NCBI GenBank assembly: GCA_052390055.1
Contig: JBQTHH010000062.1
Span: 310 to 64,309 of the forward strand
Reading direction: 5' to 3'
Length of the DNA stretch: 64,000 bases
Source of the DNA: Rhodoferax sp.
Lineage (GTDB): Bacteria; Pseudomonadota; Gammaproteobacteria; Burkholderiales; Burkholderiaceae_C
The notes under the pieces were generated by a model. The model had not been told where the DNA came from. It did not search any database and saw only the letters and a program-made list of their open reading frames with translations. Within the stretch, counting starts at the first letter, position 1. Every line of letters begins with the position of its first letter. The translations under genes were made by a program, and so were the position numbers. Of this stretch, positions 52,725 through 62,788 are shown in pieces.

Positions 52725-52947
52725 TCCGGCATCTGGCAATGGCTGGCATTCAGTGGCATCTGAACGTGCGTAAGTTGGCGTAAACATTGAAGATTATTAT
52801 TTTTTGTTTGGCATTGACTGGCACGGTTTGGCAACGCCAAGCACTCTTTTTTCATGGCATTATGGATGGTACTATGTGCCATTGATGCCATGAGTTGCAC
52901 CTGATACCATGCCGTCTTGAAGCGAGTGGCATGGTATCCAAACTGCA

Positions 52948-52960
52948 TAACTTATTGATA
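52948..52960 (-). promoter_or_regulatory. IHF binding site in the attL arm
   Basis: Minus strand TATCAATAAGTTA, a perfect WATCAANNNNTTR match. Confidence 0.65.
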
Positions 52961-53030
52961 TTCAACGAGTTTTTGCGGTTTTTTGCGGTGGATCGAATCA
53001 TGGTATTGGAACCTAAACAGGACCAAGACC

Positions 53031-54239
53031 ATGCTGACCGATACCAAGCTGCGCAACCTCAAGCCACAGGACAAGCTCTACAAGGTGAACGACCGGGACG
53101 GCCTCTATGTGGCCGTCACCCCCGCTGGATCGATCTCGTTCCGCTACAACTACTCCATCAACGGCCGGCAGGAGACCATCACGTTCGGCCGCTATGGCGT
53201 CGGCGGCATCACCCTGTCGGAAGCCCGTGAGCAGCTTGGTGAGGCCAAGAAGCTGATCGCTGGCGGCAAGTCGCCAGCGAAGGAAAAGGCACGAGACAAG
53301 GCTCGCGTCAAAGACGCTGAGACGTTCGGTGCGTGGGCGGAAAAGTGGCTTCGCGGCTACCAGATGGCCGACTCCACCCGCGATATGCGCCGGGCGGTCT
53401 ATGAGCGCGAGCTAAAACCGAAATTCGGCAACCAGAAGCTGGTCGAGATCACTCACGAAGACCTGCGAGCGCTGACCGATGCCATCGTGGAGCGCGGCGC
53501 ACCGGCTACGGCGGTGCATTCGCGTGAAGTGGTGCTACAGGTCTACCGGTGGGCCATCGAGCGCGGCCAGAAGGTCGATAATCCGGCGGAATTGGTGCGT
53601 CCCACGACCATCGCGAAATTCGAGCCGAGAGACCGGGCACTGACGCCAGACGAGATTGGGCTGATGTACCAGTACATGGAGCGTATCGGCACCACGCCTT
53701 CCATTCGGGCAGCGGCCAAGCTGCTGTTGCTGACGATGGTGCGCAAGAGCGAGCTGACAAACGCGACTTGGGGCGAAATCAATTTCAGCGAGGCGCTGTG
53801 GACGATCCCCAAGGAGCGCATGAAGCGGCGCAACCCGCACCTGGTGTTCCTGTCCCGGCAGGCACTGGACATCTTCATTGCCTTGAAGACCTTTGCCGGC
53901 GGATCGGACTATGTGCTGCCATCACGGTATGACTCCGATACGCCAATGAGCAGCGCAACGCTCAACCAGGTGCTGACGCTGACGTACCGGCTTGCGCAGA
54001 AGGAGGGGAAACCCCTTGCGAAGTTCGGGCCGCACGACCTGCGGCGAACGGCAAGCACGCTGCTGCATGAAGCTGGATACAACACTGACTGGATTGAAAA
54101 ATGCCTCGCCCACGAGCAAAAGGGCGTGAGGGCGGTGTACAACAAGGCCGAGTATCGAGAGCAACGCACGGCGATGCTGCAAGACTGGGCGGACATGATT
54201 GACGAGTGGGCGCTCAAGCGGCCACGGCCATCGGCATGA
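53031..54239 (+). CDS. int: Tyrosine integrase (P4-like, arm-binding domain)
   Basis: MLTDTKLRNLKP, DRDGLYV, TMVRKSE, HDLRRT, LAHEQ, AVYN; catalytic R-H-R-H-Y intact. Confidence 0.96.
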   Translation: MLTDTKLRNLKPQDKLYKVNDRDGLYVAVTPAGSISFRYNYSINGRQETITFGRYGVGGITLSEAREQLGEAKKLIAGGKSPAKEKARDKARVKDAETFGAWAEKWLRGYQMADSTRDMRRAVYERELKPKFGNQKLVEITHEDLRALTDAIVERGAPATAVHSREVVLQVYRWAIERGQKVDNPAELVRPTTIAKFEPRDRALTPDEIGLMYQYMERIGTTPSIRAAAKLLLLTMVRKSELTNATWGEINFSEALWTIPKERMKRRNPHLVFLSRQALDIFIALKTFAGGSDYVLPSRYDSDTPMSSATLNQVLTLTYRLAQKEGKPLAKFGPHDLRRTASTLLHEAGYNTDWIEKCLAHEQKGVRAVYNKAEYREQRTAMLQDWADMIDEWALKRPRPSA

Positions 54240-54444
54240 AACCGGGGCGTGTGGCCTGAGTGCCCGACGACTTGCGGGCCTCAATCCACGCCTCGACCTC
54301 TTCCAAGTCCCAGGCCACGTTTCGGCTGGTGAGCGCGATGCGGCGCGGGAACTCCCCCCGCTGCTCCATGTTGAAGATGGTGCGCTCCGACAGCGGGATC
54401 ATCAAGAGCAGCTTCTTGCGGTTGATCAGGGTCTTGCTGGTCAT
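54214..54444 (-). CDS. AlpA-family excisionase / recombination directionality factor
   Basis: LINRKKLLLMIPLSERTIFNMEQRGEFPRRIALTSRNVAWDLEEVEAWI. Confidence 0.9.
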   Translation of the reverse strand: MTSKTLINRKKLLLMIPLSERTIFNMEQRGEFPRRIALTSRNVAWDLEEVEAWIEARKSSGTQATRPGFMPMAVAA

Positions 54445-54782
54445 TGTTCTTCTCCATACGAAAATTCGATGCGGGTGACCGTGGTTTCCGGGGTGCAGCC
54501 ACGGTGTGACGCGCAGAACATGGCGACAAAGCTGCTCGGCCACTTGTAGTCCGGGTGCGTGCCGAAGCCTTCCAACTCGCACTCGAGAAACCCATAGTCC
54601 AAGTCGTCGGTCATTGCCCGCAGCGGCTCGCGGCGCACGCTGACGACAGTCAGCGGATCGCGCAGCACGTCCAGCTTCTCGCCGGGGCGAAGCCCCATGC
54701 ACTTGCGCACCGGGCGCAGCTTGTCGCCCGGTTTCAAGTTCAGCCAGCCAAGCCTGCGCGTCACGGTCTTGGTGCCTTCCAT
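54441..54782 (-). CDS. ASCH/PUA-like phage protein, probably N-terminally truncated
   Basis: GTKTVTRRLGW ASCH signature (GxKxxTxR); ATGA-coupled to alpA; lacks the usual short N-terminal strand. Confidence 0.65.
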   Translation of the reverse strand: MEGTKTVTRRLGWLNLKPGDKLRPVRKCMGLRPGEKLDVLRDPLTVVSVRREPLRAMTDDLDYGFLECELEGFGTHPDYKWPSSFVAMFCASHRGCTPETTVTRIEFSYGEEQ

Positions 54783-55660
54783 GCTCCAAGTTGCGTACCG
54801 CCTTGACCGATTGACGTTGGAAACCAGTCGCCCCACTGCTTGAACAAAAACGGCACATCGGCGCCTGCGCACTGGTCGCGCAGGCTGCGTGCCCAGTCCG
54901 GGTGCATCGGCCGCGCACTCGGGCCGGATTCGCCCCCGGCGACGACCCAGTCAATGCTCCCACGCAGTTCGCGGTTTGCGGGCGTCAGAACGTCGATGCC
55001 GTGCCACTCGCGGCCTTCGACCGTTGGCGGGGCCACGTTGGTCAGGTCCACCGGCCCCAGCAGCGGCTCCGCGCTGATCCATCGCACGGCCGCCGACGTT
55101 TGCAGCAGCAGCGGGATGCGCTCATTGGCTGCCGCCTGGTCTTCGACGCTGACCCCCAGCCATATGCGCGGGTGCGGACCCTCGGCGTAGGCCACCTGGT
55201 CATAAATTCCGTCCGGGTCTGCGCCGCCGCCGTGGTGAATGGCCGCCAGTGCCCATTTCTCCCGGCGGTCCTGGGAGAGGTAGTCGCGCATGCGGTCGGC
55301 GCGCTTGGTCAGTACCTGGAACACATGGCCAGGCTGCTCGTTGCGACTCCAAAGGCACGCCCACATGACACCGAAAACGCTGTCGATGAACTCGTTGGGC
55401 ACATCGGCATGGAACAGGTCGGACATGGAATTCACGAAGATGCGCCGCGGCTTCGTCCATCGGATGGGCAGCCCCAGAACATCACCATGGGTGCGCACGT
55501 CGGTGAATTTCCGGCCGTAGTAGCGCGTCTGCGAGTTTGCGGATAGCCGTGCCCAGTCGCGCTCAGCGTAGCAGTGCTTGCAGCCTTGAGAAACCTTGGT
55601 GCAGCCGGTGACCGGGTTCCAGGTGGCATTGGTCCATTCGATCTTGGTGCTATCGGCCAT
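54761..55660 (-). CDS. Phage Gp37/Gp68 (DUF5131) protein
   Basis: IEWTNATWNPVTGCTKVSQGCKHCYAE, IFVNSMSDLFH, FQVLTKR, SAEPLLG, WVVAGGESG, PFLFKQWG. Confidence 0.9.
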   Translation of the reverse strand: MADSTKIEWTNATWNPVTGCTKVSQGCKHCYAERDWARLSANSQTRYYGRKFTDVRTHGDVLGLPIRWTKPRRIFVNSMSDLFHADVPNEFIDSVFGVMWACLWSRNEQPGHVFQVLTKRADRMRDYLSQDRREKWALAAIHHGGGADPDGIYDQVAYAEGPHPRIWLGVSVEDQAAANERIPLLLQTSAAVRWISAEPLLGPVDLTNVAPPTVEGREWHGIDVLTPANRELRGSIDWVVAGGESGPSARPMHPDWARSLRDQCAGADVPFLFKQWGDWFPTSIGQGGTQLGAWKAPRP

Positions 55661-56457
55661 CACGCCCCCCGTGCCATTTCGGCCAACTGATTGAGACGAT
55701 CCGCCGGAAGGGTGATGCTGCGCGCCGACAGCCGACGGTCAACAAACAGCGTCACGCGGCCGTTCTGCGCGTGATAGCCCGTCAGCCCGGTCACGGTGAA
55801 TGGGCGGCGTGGCGTCGCCGCGCGCTTCCGTTGAGCCGTCGACGTGGAGGTGATGCCGCGCCCGGCTTCCAGCTCAGCGATGCGGCGCTTGAGGCCAGCT
55901 ACGTAGGCTGCTGCGTTGGCGGGCGTGTCCTCACCGCTGATTTCTCCAATGGCCTGCCGCCAGGCGTCGCGTTGCTTTTCCGCGCGCTCGGCGTGCTCCT
56001 GCATCATCCGGCCCCCAGCCTCGGCGTTCACCAGGTCATGGCGCAGGGCCTGGACCTGCGCTTCCAGCTCGGCGAGCTTTGCCGCATTTCCGCGGTGCAT
56101 TTTCGCCATGGCTGCGGCGGCCAGTACCCCGTCACCAGAATCGTCGGTGGTGCCGATCGCCTCCAGCAGCAGGCGTATGTGCTTGCGCTTTTCGCGGTTT
56201 GCTGCGACCACCTGTGCGGCATTGGGTTTCGGCATGGCTGGCGCGATGCTGGTCAGCCGATAAATCAGCTCGTTCCCCTTGCCTTGGCCATCTACGCACT
56301 CAACGACACCCTCGGTCCGCAGGGCGTTGAGCGCGTTGTTCACGCTGCCCTGAAAACCCGTGCGGCCAATGGACCGGGCTATCTCTTCGGCGGTCGCATC
56401 CTTTCCCTTGCCAAGGTGCGCGGTGATGAGTTTTTTCAGGTTGTCCGTGGTCATCAT
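55660..56457 (-). CDS. Hypothetical protein: N-terminal winged HTH plus coiled coil
   Basis: ATAEEIARSIG...VNNALNALRTEGVVEC...IYRL; heptad-rich middle. Confidence 0.65.
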   Translation of the reverse strand: MMTTDNLKKLITAHLGKGKDATAEEIARSIGRTGFQGSVNNALNALRTEGVVECVDGQGKGNELIYRLTSIAPAMPKPNAAQVVAANREKRKHIRLLLEAIGTTDDSGDGVLAAAAMAKMHRGNAAKLAELEAQVQALRHDLVNAEAGGRMMQEHAERAEKQRDAWRQAIGEISGEDTPANAAAYVAGLKRRIAELEAGRGITSTSTAQRKRAATPRRPFTVTGLTGYHAQNGRVTLFVDRRLSARSITLPADRLNQLAEMARGA

Positions 56458-57145: not shown

Positions 57146-57406
57146 TTACTTTGCTGCTCGCAGCTTCTGCGTCAGCGGCCAGTACAGCTTGCCCTTGCTA
57201 CGCGCCGTCTTGCCAGGCACACGGACGAGGTAGCTTTCGACTGCGCGTGGCCGACCATATGAGTCGGTCTCAATTCGTTGGTCTTGCGATAGCCACTCCA
57301 TGGGGGCCTTGATGACTTCAACGATGCCGGTTTTTTCCGTCGCGCTGCCGTTGGCTTGACTGCTCCAGGTCACTTTTTGCCCGAGGTGAAATTTCATAAC
57401 GCTCAT
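57146..57406 (-). CDS. Hypothetical phage protein (SH3/KOW-like beta-rich)
   Basis: MKFHLGQKVTW...KTGIVEV...YLVRV...LYWP. Confidence 0.65.
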   Translation of the reverse strand: MSVMKFHLGQKVTWSSQANGSATEKTGIVEVIKAPMEWLSQDQRIETDSYGRPRAVESYLVRVPGKTARSKGKLYWPLTQKLRAAK

Positions 57407-58143
57407 GCAGTGACCCCCTCATCTTCTGCTTCGACAAACTGGCCGTTGATGTCGAGCTCGTACCAGACGCCAGGCCTGATGCCGTTGTCGCCGACCTTGC
57501 TGGCACGAATGTGGGTGATGTTGCCGTCGCTGTCCCGATGCACGAGCACAATGGCCCCCGTCTCTCCAGCCATTGCCCGTCCTTCGCGGCCGCAGGCAAT
57601 GGCCACAGAGTGTTTTCCGGTGCTGCTGGCCGCGCCATAGTCCCCGGTGCTGCTGGCCGCGCCATAGTCCCCGGTGCTGCTGGCCGCGCCACGGGCCCCG
57701 GTGCTGCTGGCCGCGCCACGGGCCCCGGTGCTGCTGGCCGCGCCTTGGTACCCGGTGCTGCTGGCCGGTGAGTCAGGATCGATGGGGTTGCACCGGCTGC
57801 TGGTGTATTCGATGGCTGCCTTCACCAAGCCGGCAATGCTGATCTCGGCCATGATCGAAATCGACTTGCTGGCAACCTTCGTGTCACCATCGTGCCGGCT
57901 CAGGTCGCCGGATTGCTGGACGACAGCGAACCGATTGCCTGCTGGCGGGTAGTAGCGGAACACGTCCAGCGGGTACTCGCAAGCGTGAAATCCTGAATCG
58001 CACGCCTTGACAGCGCCGTCGTGCTTGAAGGTCTCCCCGACCTTGTACTTGAAGCCACGGCACTCCCATTTGTCGTTGAAGCCTTTGAATGACGTGATGC
58101 TTTCCTCGATGGCCTTCACTTTCTTCTTGGCCTTAGCGGTCAT
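57403..58143 (-). CDS. Phage protein with GAASSTGxx repeats
   Basis: FKGFN...CRGFKYKVGETF...GFHACEYPLDVFRYY domain, repeats, then NGIRPGVWYEL. Confidence 0.8.
   Translation of the reverse strand: MTAKAKKKVKAIEESITSFKGFNDKWECRGFKYKVGETFKHDGAVKACDSGFHACEYPLDVFRYYPPAGNRFAVVQQSGDLSRHDGDTKVASKSISIMAEISIAGLVKAAIEYTSSRCNPIDPDSPASSTGYQGAASSTGARGAASSTGARGAASSTGDYGAASSTGDYGAASSTGKHSVAIACGREGRAMAGETGAIVLVHRDSDGNITHIRASKVGDNGIRPGVWYELDINGQFVEAEDEGVTA
57617..57766. repeat. 27-bp coding tandem repeat, 5 full units plus 1 partial
   Basis: ccggtgctgctggccgcgcc plus 7 variable nt at 57617, 57644, 57671, 57698, 57725; partial at 57752. Confidence 0.95.
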
Positions 58144-59948
58144 GCTGCCTCCTTGAGTTGCCCGGCCACGCCGTTCTCGATCCAGTGCGCTTCGACCGCC
58201 TCCGGTAAATGAGCCGGGAGCGCCTTCAGCGTGCCGAACACCAGGGCGGTGTCGAACTCGCCGTCCTGGGCCATGCCGTCGAGCCAGTACAGCAGGTCCT
58301 CGCGGCCCTTGAGATCGAGCACGTCGAAGCGGTCCAGCACCAGCAGGCGCACGCCTGCCAGGTGCGAAACCGCCTCGGCGATCATTGCGTCAACACGCCA
58401 CTTCTCGGATTCGCTGATAAGGGCGTAATCGCGCTCGCCATAGGTGATCCGCATATCGGCCCGGATTGCCACCGGGGCCCACTCGGCCACTGCGGCGCTG
58501 TGCTGCATGCGCTTGTTGATCGGGCCCAAGGCCTCGCCCAGCATTTCGCCCGGGATGCCGTCGGGCGCCAGCGCGTCGGCGATGTCGGTCCAGGCCAGTA
58601 CGTCCGCATGCAGGGCGGTTGCCTGGTCGATGACGGCCTGCCGCTGGGTCGCCTGCTCGGCCATGGCGCGGTACTTGTCGGCGTCTGCGCGCCACGCATT
58701 GCGCTTTGCGGTCTGCTCCGCCACCTTGGCCTGCAGTGGCTCCAGGTTGATGACTTCGGCGGCCTGCTCATCCAACTCCTTGAGCCGGGCCGCAGCCTGC
58801 TCGGCGGTAGCCAGGTCGCGCTTGTCGTTGGCGACAGCGCTCTGCACCAGGGCCAGCGCCCGTTCGTATTCCGGGAGCTTGGCCACGGCCTCGGGATCCG
58901 GCGCGTCGCCTTTCTTGTGCGGCCAGCCGTGCAGCTTCTTGTACTCGGCAAGGTGGGTCTCGGCGCGGTTGATCAGGCTCTCGTCGAACGGATCAGGGAA
59001 CGAGCGGGCCACGGAAAGGAAATCGTCGGTCACGCTGGCTAGGCCGCGCAGCAGGAACTCGCCCGGGGCTTTCGGATTGACGGGCGCACTGCCGGCCTTC
59101 TCTCGGGTGGCGGCGACCCTCTGCCCCCATTCAGCGACCTCGGCTTCGTCGCGCGCCAGCTTGGCCTTGATGCGCTCCATGCGCCCGGACTGTTCCTCCA
59201 GCGTGGCGCGTTGGGCGACCAATTGCTGGCGCTTCTGCACCGCCGCCGTGGCCGCGCCCAGTTCCTGCTGAGCTGCGCCGAGCAGCGTTTCGTATTCCGC
59301 GGCCTGGGCCATGGCGTTTTCGCGCAGCGATGTGGCGCGGGTGGCATCGGTAGGCAGCGGCGCCGGTTGCCACTTCGCCGCCTTGTCCTTGCCCCAGGTT
59401 TCGCCGCCGGTCGCGGTCTTCCAACTCGCCTTGGCGTCGCGGGCCTTGGCCGCTGCTTCCTTCTGGGCAGCATCGAAGCCTGCGCGCAGGATCGGCACGA
59501 TCTGCTCAACCTTCTTGGCGTCGCAGCCGCGGGCCAGCAGGCGATCCTTGACGGCCCCGCCATCGGTACGCAGCCCCATGAGGCCGAACAAGAACGCGCG
59601 GCGGTCCTTGTCGTCAAGGCGGGCGAAGCGCTGGGCGTCCAGCACGAAGGGCAGCGCGGCGCCGTCGCAGTGGATGCCCTTGCCGGATGGCAGCACCACC
59701 GAGTAGGTTGTGCCGGCCGTGGTCACCTCAACGAAGCCGGATTCCTGGTCCTCGGTGACCAGGTGGCCGTATTCCTTCTTGAGCCCTACGCGGACAGCCT
59801 CGCCGGTCAGGGCCATGCGGACAGCCTCCTGCAAGCTGGACTTGCCCGCGCCGTTGCGACCAGCGAACAGCGACACCGACCTGGCCAGGCGCACGTCCAC
59901 TGCGCGCGCGCCAAGGACGTTGCATGTCTTGATGGTGGTGATCTTCAT
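58140..59948 (-). CDS. SMC/SbcC(Rad50)-like AAA ATPase
   Basis: GRNGAGKSS Walker A, long coiled coils, C-terminal ISESEKWR and LVLDRFDVLD. Confidence 0.82.
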   Translation of the reverse strand: MKITTIKTCNVLGARAVDVRLARSVSLFAGRNGAGKSSLQEAVRMALTGEAVRVGLKKEYGHLVTEDQESGFVEVTTAGTTYSVVLPSGKGIHCDGAALPFVLDAQRFARLDDKDRRAFLFGLMGLRTDGGAVKDRLLARGCDAKKVEQIVPILRAGFDAAQKEAAAKARDAKASWKTATGGETWGKDKAAKWQPAPLPTDATRATSLRENAMAQAAEYETLLGAAQQELGAATAAVQKRQQLVAQRATLEEQSGRMERIKAKLARDEAEVAEWGQRVAATREKAGSAPVNPKAPGEFLLRGLASVTDDFLSVARSFPDPFDESLINRAETHLAEYKKLHGWPHKKGDAPDPEAVAKLPEYERALALVQSAVANDKRDLATAEQAAARLKELDEQAAEVINLEPLQAKVAEQTAKRNAWRADADKYRAMAEQATQRQAVIDQATALHADVLAWTDIADALAPDGIPGEMLGEALGPINKRMQHSAAVAEWAPVAIRADMRITYGERDYALISESEKWRVDAMIAEAVSHLAGVRLLVLDRFDVLDLKGREDLLYWLDGMAQDGEFDTALVFGTLKALPAHLPEAVEAHWIENGVAGQLKEAA

Positions 59949-60676
59949 GCGGCCTCCCCACCCAGGTCATCTGCAGCATCGCCATGGGCCTTCCACCAAG
60001 CGGTGTTGTTCTCCTGCTGCCACGCCTTCCAACCGATGATCCACTGGATGCACAACTCACCGCGAATCACTGGGCAGTCGGATTGCAGCTTGCCCTCGCT
60101 GGCTGCGTGGTAGCCGTCGTCGTGAGCCTGCTGCAACTCGGAGTCGAGCGGCTTGTGCTCGATGGCGATCAGCTCGGCATCGACAACATCACCGTCGTCG
60201 GCGCCTGCGCCGTCCATGCCTTTGCCGTCGCCATTCGGGTCATATTCGTGCCCCAGGTCCATGGTGCGCTGGTCTGCCTCGCCCTGTATCTTGTCCATCC
60301 CGCCGGTGTGCTGGGCGGGGTTGGCGACAACCACCAGCACCGCCTTGCCGCTGGCTTCGTACAGCTCGTGCAGGTTCGGCGCAGCGCTGCTGAACTTGAC
60401 AACGGCCTTCACGCCGTCCTTGATGGTGATCTGGTCGAGGTCACCGGCCACCACGGTGCGGCCCTCGCTGGCGATCAGGTGCACGGCCATCTTCACGTTG
60501 GTTTCCACGCGATCACGAAGGCGGTCGATCACGTCGTCCTGTTTGGCTTTGGGTATCTTGGCCCACACATCGGGCAGCAGCTTGATTTCCTGCACGAGGG
60601 CCTGCAGCAGGTCGCGCCCAACGGTCGCGGAGGTCATGGACAGGAGCGCTTTCACGTCATCGTTCGATTCGGTCAT
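59945..60676 (-). CDS. Phage protein with C-terminal ribosome modulation factor (Rmf)-like domain
   Basis: LQQAHDDGYHAASEGKLQSDCPVIRGELCIQWIIGW matches the Rmf A-x3-GY-x-A-x3-G-x5-CP-x9-W-x2-GW pattern. Confidence 0.72.
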   Translation of the reverse strand: MTESNDDVKALLSMTSATVGRDLLQALVQEIKLLPDVWAKIPKAKQDDVIDRLRDRVETNVKMAVHLIASEGRTVVAGDLDQITIKDGVKAVVKFSSAAPNLHELYEASGKAVLVVVANPAQHTGGMDKIQGEADQRTMDLGHEYDPNGDGKGMDGAGADDGDVVDAELIAIEHKPLDSELQQAHDDGYHAASEGKLQSDCPVIRGELCIQWIIGWKAWQQENNTAWWKAHGDAADDLGGEAA

Positions 60677-60743
60677 GGGGTCGGTTCCTTTCAGTCGTGT
60701 TGGTTATTGGGTTAAGAGATCTGTCGGGCTTCGGGGCAGAGGG

Positions 60744-61826
60744 CTATTCCAGGCCCAGGCCACCCTGGCCGCGTTCGCGGCGGGTGCGGGTGTGCGGTAC
60801 TTGTTGGCCTGCGGCTTCGGCCATTTCGCGGGCTTGAATCGCGGCCTGTTCCTGGGGCGATGGCTCCCAGTTAGCGCCCGACTCTTCAACCAATTGATTC
60901 GGGCGCGGAGGAGGAACTTGAACTGGCGCCTGTTCTGCCAGGTAGCCATGGACCTCCCCAGTTTCTTCATCGACAGACCCCGCCGTATACGGCGCGTCAT
61001 CCGGAACAACGGCGAAGTCACCGTCCAGCGTGTCGAGGTGTTGGTCTTTACCACCTTCCGCCATGCTGTCCAGCGCCGCCGCAGTTTGGAACTCGATCGA
61101 GAGCGGCAGGTACTTGGCCAGCCGACGAATCACGGTCTTGCGGCCCATTTCTGTGAAGTGCGCGCCCCAAGGGTGGGAGTCCTGCTTCTTGTACTTCACG
61201 GCCTGCTGGTAGCCCTGCGAGGCGTCGCGGATTTCATTGATCTGGCGAACGCTCATGAACTCGAAGCAGTGCCCGCCGTCGCGGAGCTTGGCCACCGCGT
61301 AGAAGCCGATGATCTGGCCACGCTCACCCAGCGACGGGGTGTGGATCAGCTTCTCGTCAAGGCCATAGACCAGCTCGAACTTGTCGTTCTCGCAGACCTC
61401 GTGGGCGGCGATGCTGACGATCTGGCCACTGCGGCGCGCGAGGTCGATCAGGCCTTTGTAGCCGATGATGACCTGCACCGAATTGACCCAGCGCTCGTTG
61501 CCGTTGCCGTCCTTGCGCTTCGTGTTGAATGGGACCAGGTAGGCATGGCCGAGGACGGTGTTCGGCTCGAGGCCCATCTGGGCGCATTGACCGATTGCGC
61601 CGACAAGACTGGCCACGTCGCACTTGGCCAGCGCCGGGGTGGTGGTGGCCGCGATCTGGGCGACCTTCAGCAGGCGGTCGGCGTTCAGGTGCTTCGGCAA
61701 CATCTTGGCGATCTCACCCTGCTTGGTTTTCAGCAGGTAGGCGATCTGCTCCTTGGGCTTCATGTCGGCGAGGCGGACGGCCTGCTCGGCTCCGGTGGCG
61801 ACGGCTTTCAATGCTTGGCTGCTCAT
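60744..61826 (-). CDS. recT: RecT-family single-strand annealing protein
   Basis: LPKHLNADR, SLVGAIGQCAQMGLEP...GHAYLVPF, IGYKGLIDLARRSG, MGRKTVIRRLAKYLPLSIE. Confidence 0.95.
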   Translation of the reverse strand: MSSQALKAVATGAEQAVRLADMKPKEQIAYLLKTKQGEIAKMLPKHLNADRLLKVAQIAATTTPALAKCDVASLVGAIGQCAQMGLEPNTVLGHAYLVPFNTKRKDGNGNERWVNSVQVIIGYKGLIDLARRSGQIVSIAAHEVCENDKFELVYGLDEKLIHTPSLGERGQIIGFYAVAKLRDGGHCFEFMSVRQINEIRDASQGYQQAVKYKKQDSHPWGAHFTEMGRKTVIRRLAKYLPLSIEFQTAAALDSMAEGGKDQHLDTLDGDFAVVPDDAPYTAGSVDEETGEVHGYLAEQAPVQVPPPRPNQLVEESGANWEPSPQEQAAIQAREMAEAAGQQVPHTRTRRERGQGGLGLE

Positions 61827-61852: not shown

Positions 61853-62788
61853 TTACTTGAGGACGAAGGGCCGGTTGCCCGGCTTCGTGGTGGTGAATCG
61901 GGCGGTGTGCTCTGCGGTCGGATGCAGGTCAAGGTAAGCGGCCTGCCAGTCGGTCGTGACGCTGTCCTTGTTGTTCTTCCAGGTGGCCAGCGGCTTGCCG
62001 CGATAGATCAGCGTTGCCGCGCTGCCCATGCGGGCCTTGATACGTGCCGCCAGCAGCTCAATCTGGCCGTCCAGGTTCTTTGCGTCAGCCTTTATGTCCT
62101 TCAGCTTCTGGCACAGCAGCACCAGGTGGTCGTCCGCCTCAATCGCCGTGCCGCGGTCGCGCTGGTACAACCACTTCACGTCGACTGGATCGGTGGGGTC
62201 CGGCGGATTGCGGTACTGAATGCGATCCCAGAATTCGATCTCCCGGGGGCGCATGCCGGCGATGGTTTCCTCGTCGCGGTCCAGGAAGTGGATGCGCAAA
62301 TCGTCGGTGCCGATCAGGGCGGCTACCACGGCGCGCCGACGCGGCTTGATCATCAGGCCGTGCATCACCTGGGCTGCGTAGTAGATGGGGATTTCGTCGG
62401 TTTCCGGCTCTCCCCACTCCTTGGCGGCGAAAGGATGAACGGTCTTCATTTCCCCATTTACTTCCTCGCCGTCGATGCGCAGCTCGAGGTCCAGCTCGCA
62501 GGCCAGGAAGGGGAGCTCGGGATCCTGATAGCGCTCGTTGCGGGCGATGATCTCTACGTCGTGCCCGCGCGCCTGCAGCTCGTCGATCAGCATTTCCACG
62601 ACGACCGGCTCCCAGCGCTTGCCGCGGGCGAGCACGCGATCGCGCGCAGGGCTGGACTCCTCGGCGTAGGCGCCAATCTTTTCCTGATAGAGCTGGAAAG
62701 GGGTCTTCCACTTCGACACACCGAGGATCGCGGCGGCGTCGCTGCCGCCGATGAACTTGGTACGGTCGGGCATGAGGGGGGCATTCAC
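61853..62788 (-). CDS. YqaJ-like (lambda exonuclease family) viral recombinase
   Basis: FIGGSDAAAILGVSKWKTP, GEMKT, YYAAQVMHGL; GTG start overlapping the upstream TGA. Confidence 0.92.
   Translation of the reverse strand: MNAPLMPDRTKFIGGSDAAAILGVSKWKTPFQLYQEKIGAYAEESSPARDRVLARGKRWEPVVVEMLIDELQARGHDVEIIARNERYQDPELPFLACELDLELRIDGEEVNGEMKTVHPFAAKEWGEPETDEIPIYYAAQVMHGLMIKPRRRAVVAALIGTDDLRIHFLDRDEETIAGMRPREIEFWDRIQYRNPPDPTDPVDVKWLYQRDRGTAIEADDHLVLLCQKLKDIKADAKNLDGQIELLAARIKARMGSAATLIYRGKPLATWKNNKDSVTTDWQAAYLDLHPTAEHTARFTTTKPGNRPFVLK

Follow-up and report, generated by a model that had tools for sequence, protein, structure and literature searches.

Gene X, our working name for the whole 243-residue gene at 59945-60676 (minus strand), lies in a prophage at the end of a 64,000-nucleotide stretch of Rhodoferax sp. 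DNA (assembly GCA_052390055.1, contig JBQTHH010000062.1, positions 310 to 64,309; this whole stretch is called the window below). The C-terminal ∼55 residues of its product are a true homologue of the two-helix fold of ribosome modulation factor (RMF), and at the family level this relationship is certain. RMF binds the 30S ribosomal subunit and, with short HPF as its partner, brings about the formation of 100S particles. In X the domain is probably a reused fold rather than a phage ribosome switch, and the reading we favour, at somewhat better than even confidence, makes X a modular accessory protein in a prophage exonuclease/annealing recombination module, where the RMF fold would act in non-ribosomal interactions. 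Databases list the family already, under names that mislead, and what is new is the charge-inverted RMF-fold domain in a recombination-module protein. Gene X and its parts are:

59945 to 60676, minus strand: gene X, a prophage early protein of 243 residues made up of N-domain, acidic linker, RMF-fold domain and short tail
60281 to 60676, minus strand: N-terminal domain, residues 1-132, which defines the family (phrog_6576)
60146 to 60280, minus strand: acidic linker, residues 133-177, with the motif E-x-D-Q-R-x-x-D-L-G-x-E-Y ... D-G-x-G-M and then a low-confidence stretch
59984 to 60145, minus strand: RMF-fold domain, residues 178-231, which includes 60020-60136
59945 to 59983, minus strand: C-terminal tail ending ...DDLGGEAA, residues 232-243 and the stop, whose last codons hold the Shine-Dalgarno sequence and the start of the ATPase gene

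The segment 60020-60136 (minus strand) encodes L181-W219 of X (LQQAHDDGYHAASEGKLQSDCPVIRGELCIQWIIGWKAW), a peptide that the first-pass annotation had placed exactly and had compared with E. coli RMF. HMMER gives a gap-free alignment of residues 180-218 of X with residues 8-46 of E. coli RMF (PDB 6h4n_v), and X aligns likewise to Vibrio RMF (2jrm). The E. coli sequence used in that comparison was correct, and the ungapped alignment with 6h4n_v gives the 13 identities in 39 positions that had been counted, including GY, CP and W..GW. A hidden Markov model search against the RMF family, which had been proposed as a check, leaves the window copy below threshold but supports the relation for its family. 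The window copy stays below the cut-offs of Pfam RMF (PF04957; E=1.7e-4, 22.0 bits, cut-off 27.9), the NCBIfam equivalog rmf (NF011162; 27.7 bits, cut-off 40) and Rmf_CrpP_fam (NF041886; 19.5 bits, cut-off 28). Among 70 aligned relatives, 67 match PF04957 at E<=0.01 (best 9.6e-9), and some single relatives exceed its cut-off (34.5, 32.8 and 29.9 bits). A profile of the 52-residue RMF-like domain alone, built from 58 sequences/loci, retrieves only RMF chains from the whole PDB (2jrm, 2.1e-6; 6h4n, 3.3e-5; 4v8g, 4.3e-5).

The predicted structure leads to the same assignment. Two AlphaFold2 runs of X, one with a close and one with a diverse alignment, both give a predicted local distance difference test score (pLDDT) of 84-97 for residues 178-231, which are laid out as a helix (178-193), a linker carrying C201-P202, a second helix (206-222) and a short helix (226-231). 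RMF is likewise built of two helices and a linker. In a Foldseek search of the PDB with the second model, RMF structures are the only probable matches (probability 0.98-1.00, template-modelling score on the target 0.65-0.77) and superpose with a root-mean-square deviation of 1.2-2.5 Å over 45-51 residues; the first model matches RMF at probability 0.85-1.00. Across the 70 sequences, which are 59-85% identical overall, four positions never vary (G188, A192, W212, G215) and five hardly do (A191, G195, C201, P202, L208). The window copy on its own is sub-threshold, but the family statistics and the fold together lead us to accept the relation to RMF. A zinc site or disulfide formed by C201 and C209 was considered and rejected: 19 of the 70 sequences have Val, Ala or Ser in place of the second Cys, so this pair is not a defining feature.

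RMF (PF04957; NF011162; PDB 2JRM, 4V8G, 6H4N, 9IOT) and the X domain share the motif A-x-x-x-G-Y-x-A-G/A-x-x-G-K/R-x4-C-P-x9-W-x-x-G-W-K/R; the RMF residues retained in the family are those of the core, G16, Y17, A19, G23, K/R24, C29, P30, W40, G43, W44 and K/R45. RMF is a free protein of ∼55 residues, whereas the version in X is embedded in a protein of 243. The two also differ in the residues that contact the ribosome. In RMF, Arg3, Lys5, Arg8, Arg11 and Arg15 hydrogen-bond the 16S ribosomal RNA (rRNA) backbone, and Arg37, Glu10 and Gln39 touch domain 4 of S1 (Beckert et al. 2018, bioRxiv 10.1101/382572). In the alignment columns of 70 family members, R3 is replaced by K, Q or T (Lys in the window copy), K5 by L, T or S, R8 by E (60/70), R11 by Q, K or E and thus mostly by a non-basic residue, R15 by D (48/70) and R37 by C or V, so that the positions of R8 and R15 are conserved as acidic. 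Of the five backbone contacts, only R3 and in part R11 are at times basic in the X family. The S1-facing positions stay polar or acidic (E10 to Q/D, Q39 to E/Q). The net charge of the domain is -5 in the window copy and averages -6.5 in the family (range -10 to 0), compared with +7 for E. coli RMF; as a control, a genuine RMF found within the GTDB class of the host has a charge of +6 and an intact MKRQKRDR start. The host genome (99.96% complete) has no RMF match besides X, and 100 further genomes of the host's order have no free-standing rmf, the sole match above the cut-off there being an X-family protein of 250 residues. The charge inversion, the lost rRNA contacts, the missing host rmf and the recombination context described below together make an RMF-type action on the ribosome very unlikely.

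X has 726 homologues at E<=1e-3, the majority in Betaproteobacteria. Its N-domain and the following region match the phrog_6576 profile (E=4.3e-53; residues 7-190 on profile positions 16-198 of 325), and the N-domain is predicted to be helical with a β-hairpin (pLDDT 75-91 with the diverse alignment). In the linker, Q136 is invariant and D135, D140, L141, G142 and G151 are nearly so, in the RMF-like and Pseudomonas branches alike; residues 149-173 have a pLDDT below 50, and residues 136-172 carry a net charge of -8. The RMF-like domain is fused behind the N-domain in all 120 of the close homologues listed, and the family as a whole is modular at its C-terminus, with these architectures:

N-domain and RMF-like domain: the window copy
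N-domain, RMF-like domain and FtsK_gamma: e.g. Burkholderia phage vB_E192a (FtsK_gamma at 78-84 bits)
N-domain, RMF-like domain and H-NS C-terminal domain (56-65 bits): some members seem, by eye, to have another RMF-like repeat in degenerate form
N-domain, RMF-like domain and a further domain of ∼120 residues: proteins P0025, P0040, P0075, P0095 and P0105 (338-362 residues)
N-domain, FtsK_gamma and a winged-helix-like tail, or N-domain and that tail alone: Pseudomonas aeruginosa prophages

The additional ∼120-residue domain (...GVYTCEPDE..W......ELLEL.DG.WL...) has no Pfam match. In Pseudomonas phage YMC/01/01/P52 an X-type N-domain is followed by FtsK_gamma (98.9 bits), and the N-domain of X is 28-33% identical to the "FtsK" proteins of Pseudomonas phages. 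The phage proteins labelled FtsK (phrog_6576; YMC/01/01/P52, phi297, vB_E192a, vB_PL1) share with X the N-domain, the DQ..DL linker motif and the genomic position, after nuclease and annealing genes and before an SMC-like ATPase of ∼580-600 residues; the window copy differs in lacking any FtsK-γ domain. These proteins bear out the earlier statement that the N-terminal domain precedes an FtsK-γ tail in other phages. The accompanying idea of a swapped C-terminal module holds between branches, since in the Pseudomonas proteins FtsK-γ occupies the slot of the RMF-like domain, but fails among close relatives, where FtsK-γ or H-NS domains are stacked after it.

Public labels for the family include "ribosome modulation factor", "Rmf/CrpP family protein" (one relative, NCBI), "DNA translocase FtsK" and "cell division protein FtsK". 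An FtsK motor is present in none of the family's proteins. The window copy has no match to FtsK-γ (PF09397) at E<=1, and the "FtsK" label is therefore inapplicable to it; the family is another case in which phage labels of "ribosome modulation factor" or "FtsK" mislead.

X belongs to a recombination operon read on the minus strand in the order YqaJ, RecT, X, ATPase. The genes around it are:

61853 to 62788, minus strand: YqaJ-type (RecE-like) exonuclease, which opens the recombination block (PF09588, E=1.3e-17; phrog_434, E=1.5e-67)
60744 to 61826, minus strand: RecT-family single-strand annealing protein, the immediate upstream neighbour of X (PF03837, E=1.3e-47)
58140 to 59948, minus strand: SMC/Rad50-like ATPase of 602 residues (AAA_23, 31.9 bits; SMC_N; phrog_77, SbcC-like; Rad50 heads in the PDB)
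57403 to 58143, minus strand: DUF7666 protein (E=3e-35) with GAASSTG collagen-like repeats, overlapping the ATPase stop

As judged from the gene layout, X follows YqaJ and RecT in transcription and is predicted to be translationally coupled to the ATPase through an ATGA overlap of the X stop and the ATPase start, with an internal Shine-Dalgarno sequence. This GGAGG (plus strand cctcc, 59953-59957) lies inside the final codons of X, and the ATG is at 59946-59948. Neighbour clustering covered 70 genomic loci, mostly from Betaproteobacteria with a few from Luteibacter/Dyella. In 61 of 64 loci, the gene immediately upstream of X encodes an annealing protein of one and the same single-linkage cluster. 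The exonuclease genes near X are of a 270-residue family (38 loci) or of the YqaJ type (18 loci). The ATPase gene is found in 41 loci with a median offset of 4 nucleotides; where at least 2.5 kb of downstream flank is available, it lies on the same strand within a few kb in 39 of 57 loci. The N-domain protein followed by an ATPase of ∼580 residues also forms a pair in Burkholderia phage vB_E192a and Pseudomonas phage YMC/01/01/P52, and is a very conserved pair on RecT-type modules of Betaproteobacteria and Pseudomonas prophages.

The ATPase has a deviant active site which is conserved and not decayed across 34 family members. The Walker A motif is G-x-N-G-A-G-K-S-S, the signature is L-S-E-S-E-K/R-W-R in place of LSGGQ/E, and the Walker B motif hhhhD-R-F-D has Arg (30/34) at the position of the expected catalytic Glu and an invariant Asp three residues further on. 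No gene for an Mre11/SbcD-type nuclease is seen adjoining the ATPase gene in the window.

The annealing proteins upstream of X are of more than one kind. Those with distinct cores, from a 346-residue family (32 loci) and from true RecT (20 loci), co-cluster, apparently through similar C-terminal tails. Their C-terminal region (60744-61030 on the minus strand of the window; loci L004-L072) carries a D-x-E-T-G-E-I/V motif in many cases, and nearly all end in an Arg-rich run followed by h-x-h-E/D (RRERGQGGLGLE, RRPRGPISAE, TRRAAADME and others). In its sequence, this Arg-rich tail looks like a putative docking peptide. There is no clear correlation between the tail motif and the presence of the RMF domain, and the basic tail is also present beside X variants that lack it.

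In the favoured reading, the N-domain would be the constant working part, engaging the annealing protein and, in loci that have it, the ATPase as well, while the C-terminal modules would be targeting or docking parts. The RMF fold of X would present an acidic, Trp-rich surface to a protein or another ligand that is not rRNA, and X would not act as a ribosome hibernation factor. A basic partner is a plausible guess, such as the Arg-rich tail of the annealing protein or a host factor acting at DNA ends. By tethering or protection, the complex would aid phage recombination at DNA ends. The first-pass annotation had left a choice between phage control of host ribosomes and a reused fold, and the second option gives the better account; control in the manner of RMF does not agree with the contact residues, the charge, the lack of a host rmf or the gene context.

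Several observations weigh against the favoured reading. The ATPase is absent from 18 of the 57 loci with enough flank, and it is therefore no obligate partner of X. The N-domain has no annotated relative or relative of solved structure in Foldseek searches that used the two whole-chain models, twice against the PDB and once against BFVD. The CP, W..GW and K/R45 motif, which in RMF holds the 3' end of 16S rRNA, is conserved in the X family, so that a residual affinity for RNA or the ribosome is possible. Finally, the nearest experimental parallel, the h and e genes of Burkholderia, is likened to X and the ATPase by operon order and not by sequence, and is a lead rather than evidence.

The parallel concerns the RecET-like operons RecETh-e (BDU8), RecETh (TJI49) and RecETh1h2e (YI23) (PMC8313284, PMC5939090), which share with the X operon the order of a YqaJ-type RecE, RecT, a hypothetical h and a hypothetical e, and come from the same host group. 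In B. glumae PG1, though not in E. coli, recombineering dropped when h or e was removed from the Burkholderia YqaJ-RecT-h-e operons (PMC8313284; PMC5939090), and Red-γ or Plu-γ were unable to stand in for h/e (PMC8313284). The published h protein KVE53654.1 is not among the X-cluster members listed (15 of 114). A bolder proposal, which is possible but which we hold only tentatively, is a four-part phage system comprising the exonuclease, the annealing protein, X as an adaptor and the ATPase as an SMC-like tether, where X and the ATPase would be the h and e factors on which Burkholderia recombineering operons depend and the RMF fold would dock, for instance onto the Arg-rich tail that the annealing proteins share. 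As a corollary, the RMF fold would be first of all a small interaction module that mobile elements use, with the ribosome factor of Gammaproteobacteria as one basic, domesticated offshoot. A second lead that fits the favoured reading, beside h and e, is that RMF-like folds have been noted on C-terminal extensions of RecT (PMC13490951). If the X/ATPase pair does improve native Burkholderia RecET operons over RecE and RecT alone, an understanding of it would help in porting recombineering to non-model hosts.

A different role for acidity is envisaged if X is a Gam-like DNA mimic, which would occupy the "gam slot" of the operon and inhibit a host nuclease (e.g. RecBCD) or another DNA-binding defence protein, with the RMF fold forming part of the mimic surface. 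X does come last in the block of exonuclease and annealing-protein genes, its linker and RMF-fold domain are acidic, and its net charge is -20 over 243 residues; moreover, H-BDU of the YqaJ-RecT-H operon, a possible counterpart of X, was regarded as a putative Red-γ-like exonuclease inhibitor by the authors of the PNAS 2018 study (PMC5939090). We consider the mimic unlikely, since no Gam or nuclease-inhibitor family appears among the Pfam (E<=1), PHROG or PADLOC matches, the DNA-binding FtsK-γ and H-NS tails of its relatives would be odd for a DNA mimic, and Gam lacks the tight coupling that X has to an SMC-like ATPase. The B. glumae experiments point the same way, with neither γ protein replacing h/e and no benefit from h/e in E. 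coli. A defence-system reading of X itself was dropped because PADLOC gave no defence-system family for X, and for the ATPase it returned generic P-loop matches only.

The RMF-like domain might instead bind DNA or single-stranded DNA, as an equivalent of the FtsK-γ domain or winged-helix tail of the Pseudomonas branch. It takes the same architectural position as FtsK-γ in Pseudomonas phages, the ancestral RMF fold binds RNA, and the aromatic residues W212, W216 and W219 are conserved. A nucleic-acid-binding module is nevertheless improbable for a domain whose charge is negative throughout the family. In close relatives, moreover, a bona fide DNA-binding domain comes next in the chain, an indication that the RMF-like domain does not supply that function.

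Less probable still is a phage mimic of RMF, which would occupy RMF's pocket on the host 30S subunit or bind S1, and would shut down or re-programme translation or block hibernation. The homology is real and the fold is the same. The conserved residues C29-P30, W40 and G43-W44, together with R45 (Lys in X), belong to the linker and helix-2 elements by which RMF shapes the 3' end of 16S rRNA (bioRxiv 10.1101/382572), and the positions facing S1 have kept their polar or acidic character. Set against this are the exchanges at R8, R15, K5, R37 and mostly R11, the charge of -5 against +7, the lack of rmf in the host and in the 100 genomes of its order, the recombination gene context, and the DNA-binding domains appended in relatives. 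S2, S7, S9 and S21 surround the closed RMF pocket, S1 caps it, and the N-terminus of RMF is intertwined with S7 (bioRxiv 10.1101/382572); we infer that the 177-residue N-terminal fusion of X would sit poorly in this pocket.

Chance resemblance, or a functionless decayed remnant, would agree with a window copy that scores under every curated cut-off, but is refuted by the family-level statistics, the fold and the residues conserved across 70 sequences, and can be set aside as next to impossible.

Non-basic forms of the RMF fold are common in mobile elements. Among 1.84 billion proteins, the domain profile matches 185 representatives, and most matches outside the X family are proteins of 45-80 residues that are acidic or neutral, few being basic with an RMF-like charge. 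In BFVD, the RMF part of the model finds dozens of phage proteins of 45-75 residues that share the fold, some of them named "ribosome modulation factor". A word-based search of a 5.8-billion-protein set found no free-standing relative of similar size that shares words with the domain. The fold is also used in repeats, in P0287 (590 residues), P0329 (563), P0366 (471), P0361 (439) and P0290 (389); these long proteins are hyper-acidic, their net charges running from -29 to -57, and they contain two or three RMF-like repeats but nothing else that Pfam recognizes. The small Rmf/CrpP proteins (NF041886) resemble the X domain as a non-basic RMF fold on mobile elements, and differ in that the fold of X is fused to a 130-residue N-domain and an acidic linker and scores higher on the true RMF model (27.7 versus 19.5 bits). 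A plasmid collection yielded a single weak, partial match to X.

The final ∼11 kb of the window is prophage, and the contig ends inside it, ∼0.8 kb past the window. Its other end carries the following genes, together with a GNAT protein, also on the integrase side:

52983 to 54239, plus strand: tyrosine integrase (Arm-DNA-bind_3 and Phage_int), at the left end of the prophage and its junction with host genes
54214 to 54963, minus strand: AlpA-type excisionase
54761 to 55663, minus strand: DUF5131 protein

ARAGORN found no transfer RNA gene at the integrase/host junction (52790-54239). The collagen-like repeats of the gene at 57403-58143 give tail-fibre-like PHROG matches although this gene sits in the early operon.

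An open reading frame mirrors X on the opposite strand (59984-60715, plus strand) and was rejected as the usual artefact of high GC content, the minus-strand frame being the one with the 726 homologues. At the 3' end of X (59945-59965, minus strand), the ending ...(G)GEAA with the stop is set by the ribosome-binding site and start of the next gene (GGGGAGGCnGCATGA or GCGTGA; loci L004-L072). The junction ...(G)EAA with GCATGA or GCGTGA is repeated across many loci irrespective of which gene comes next, and unrelated X architectures thus share the ...EAA ending because the Shine-Dalgarno sequence and start of the downstream gene lie inside the last codons of X. The same ending is kept before genes other than the ATPase, e.g. 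an open reading frame of 98-122 residues in loci L006, L029, L038 and L060.

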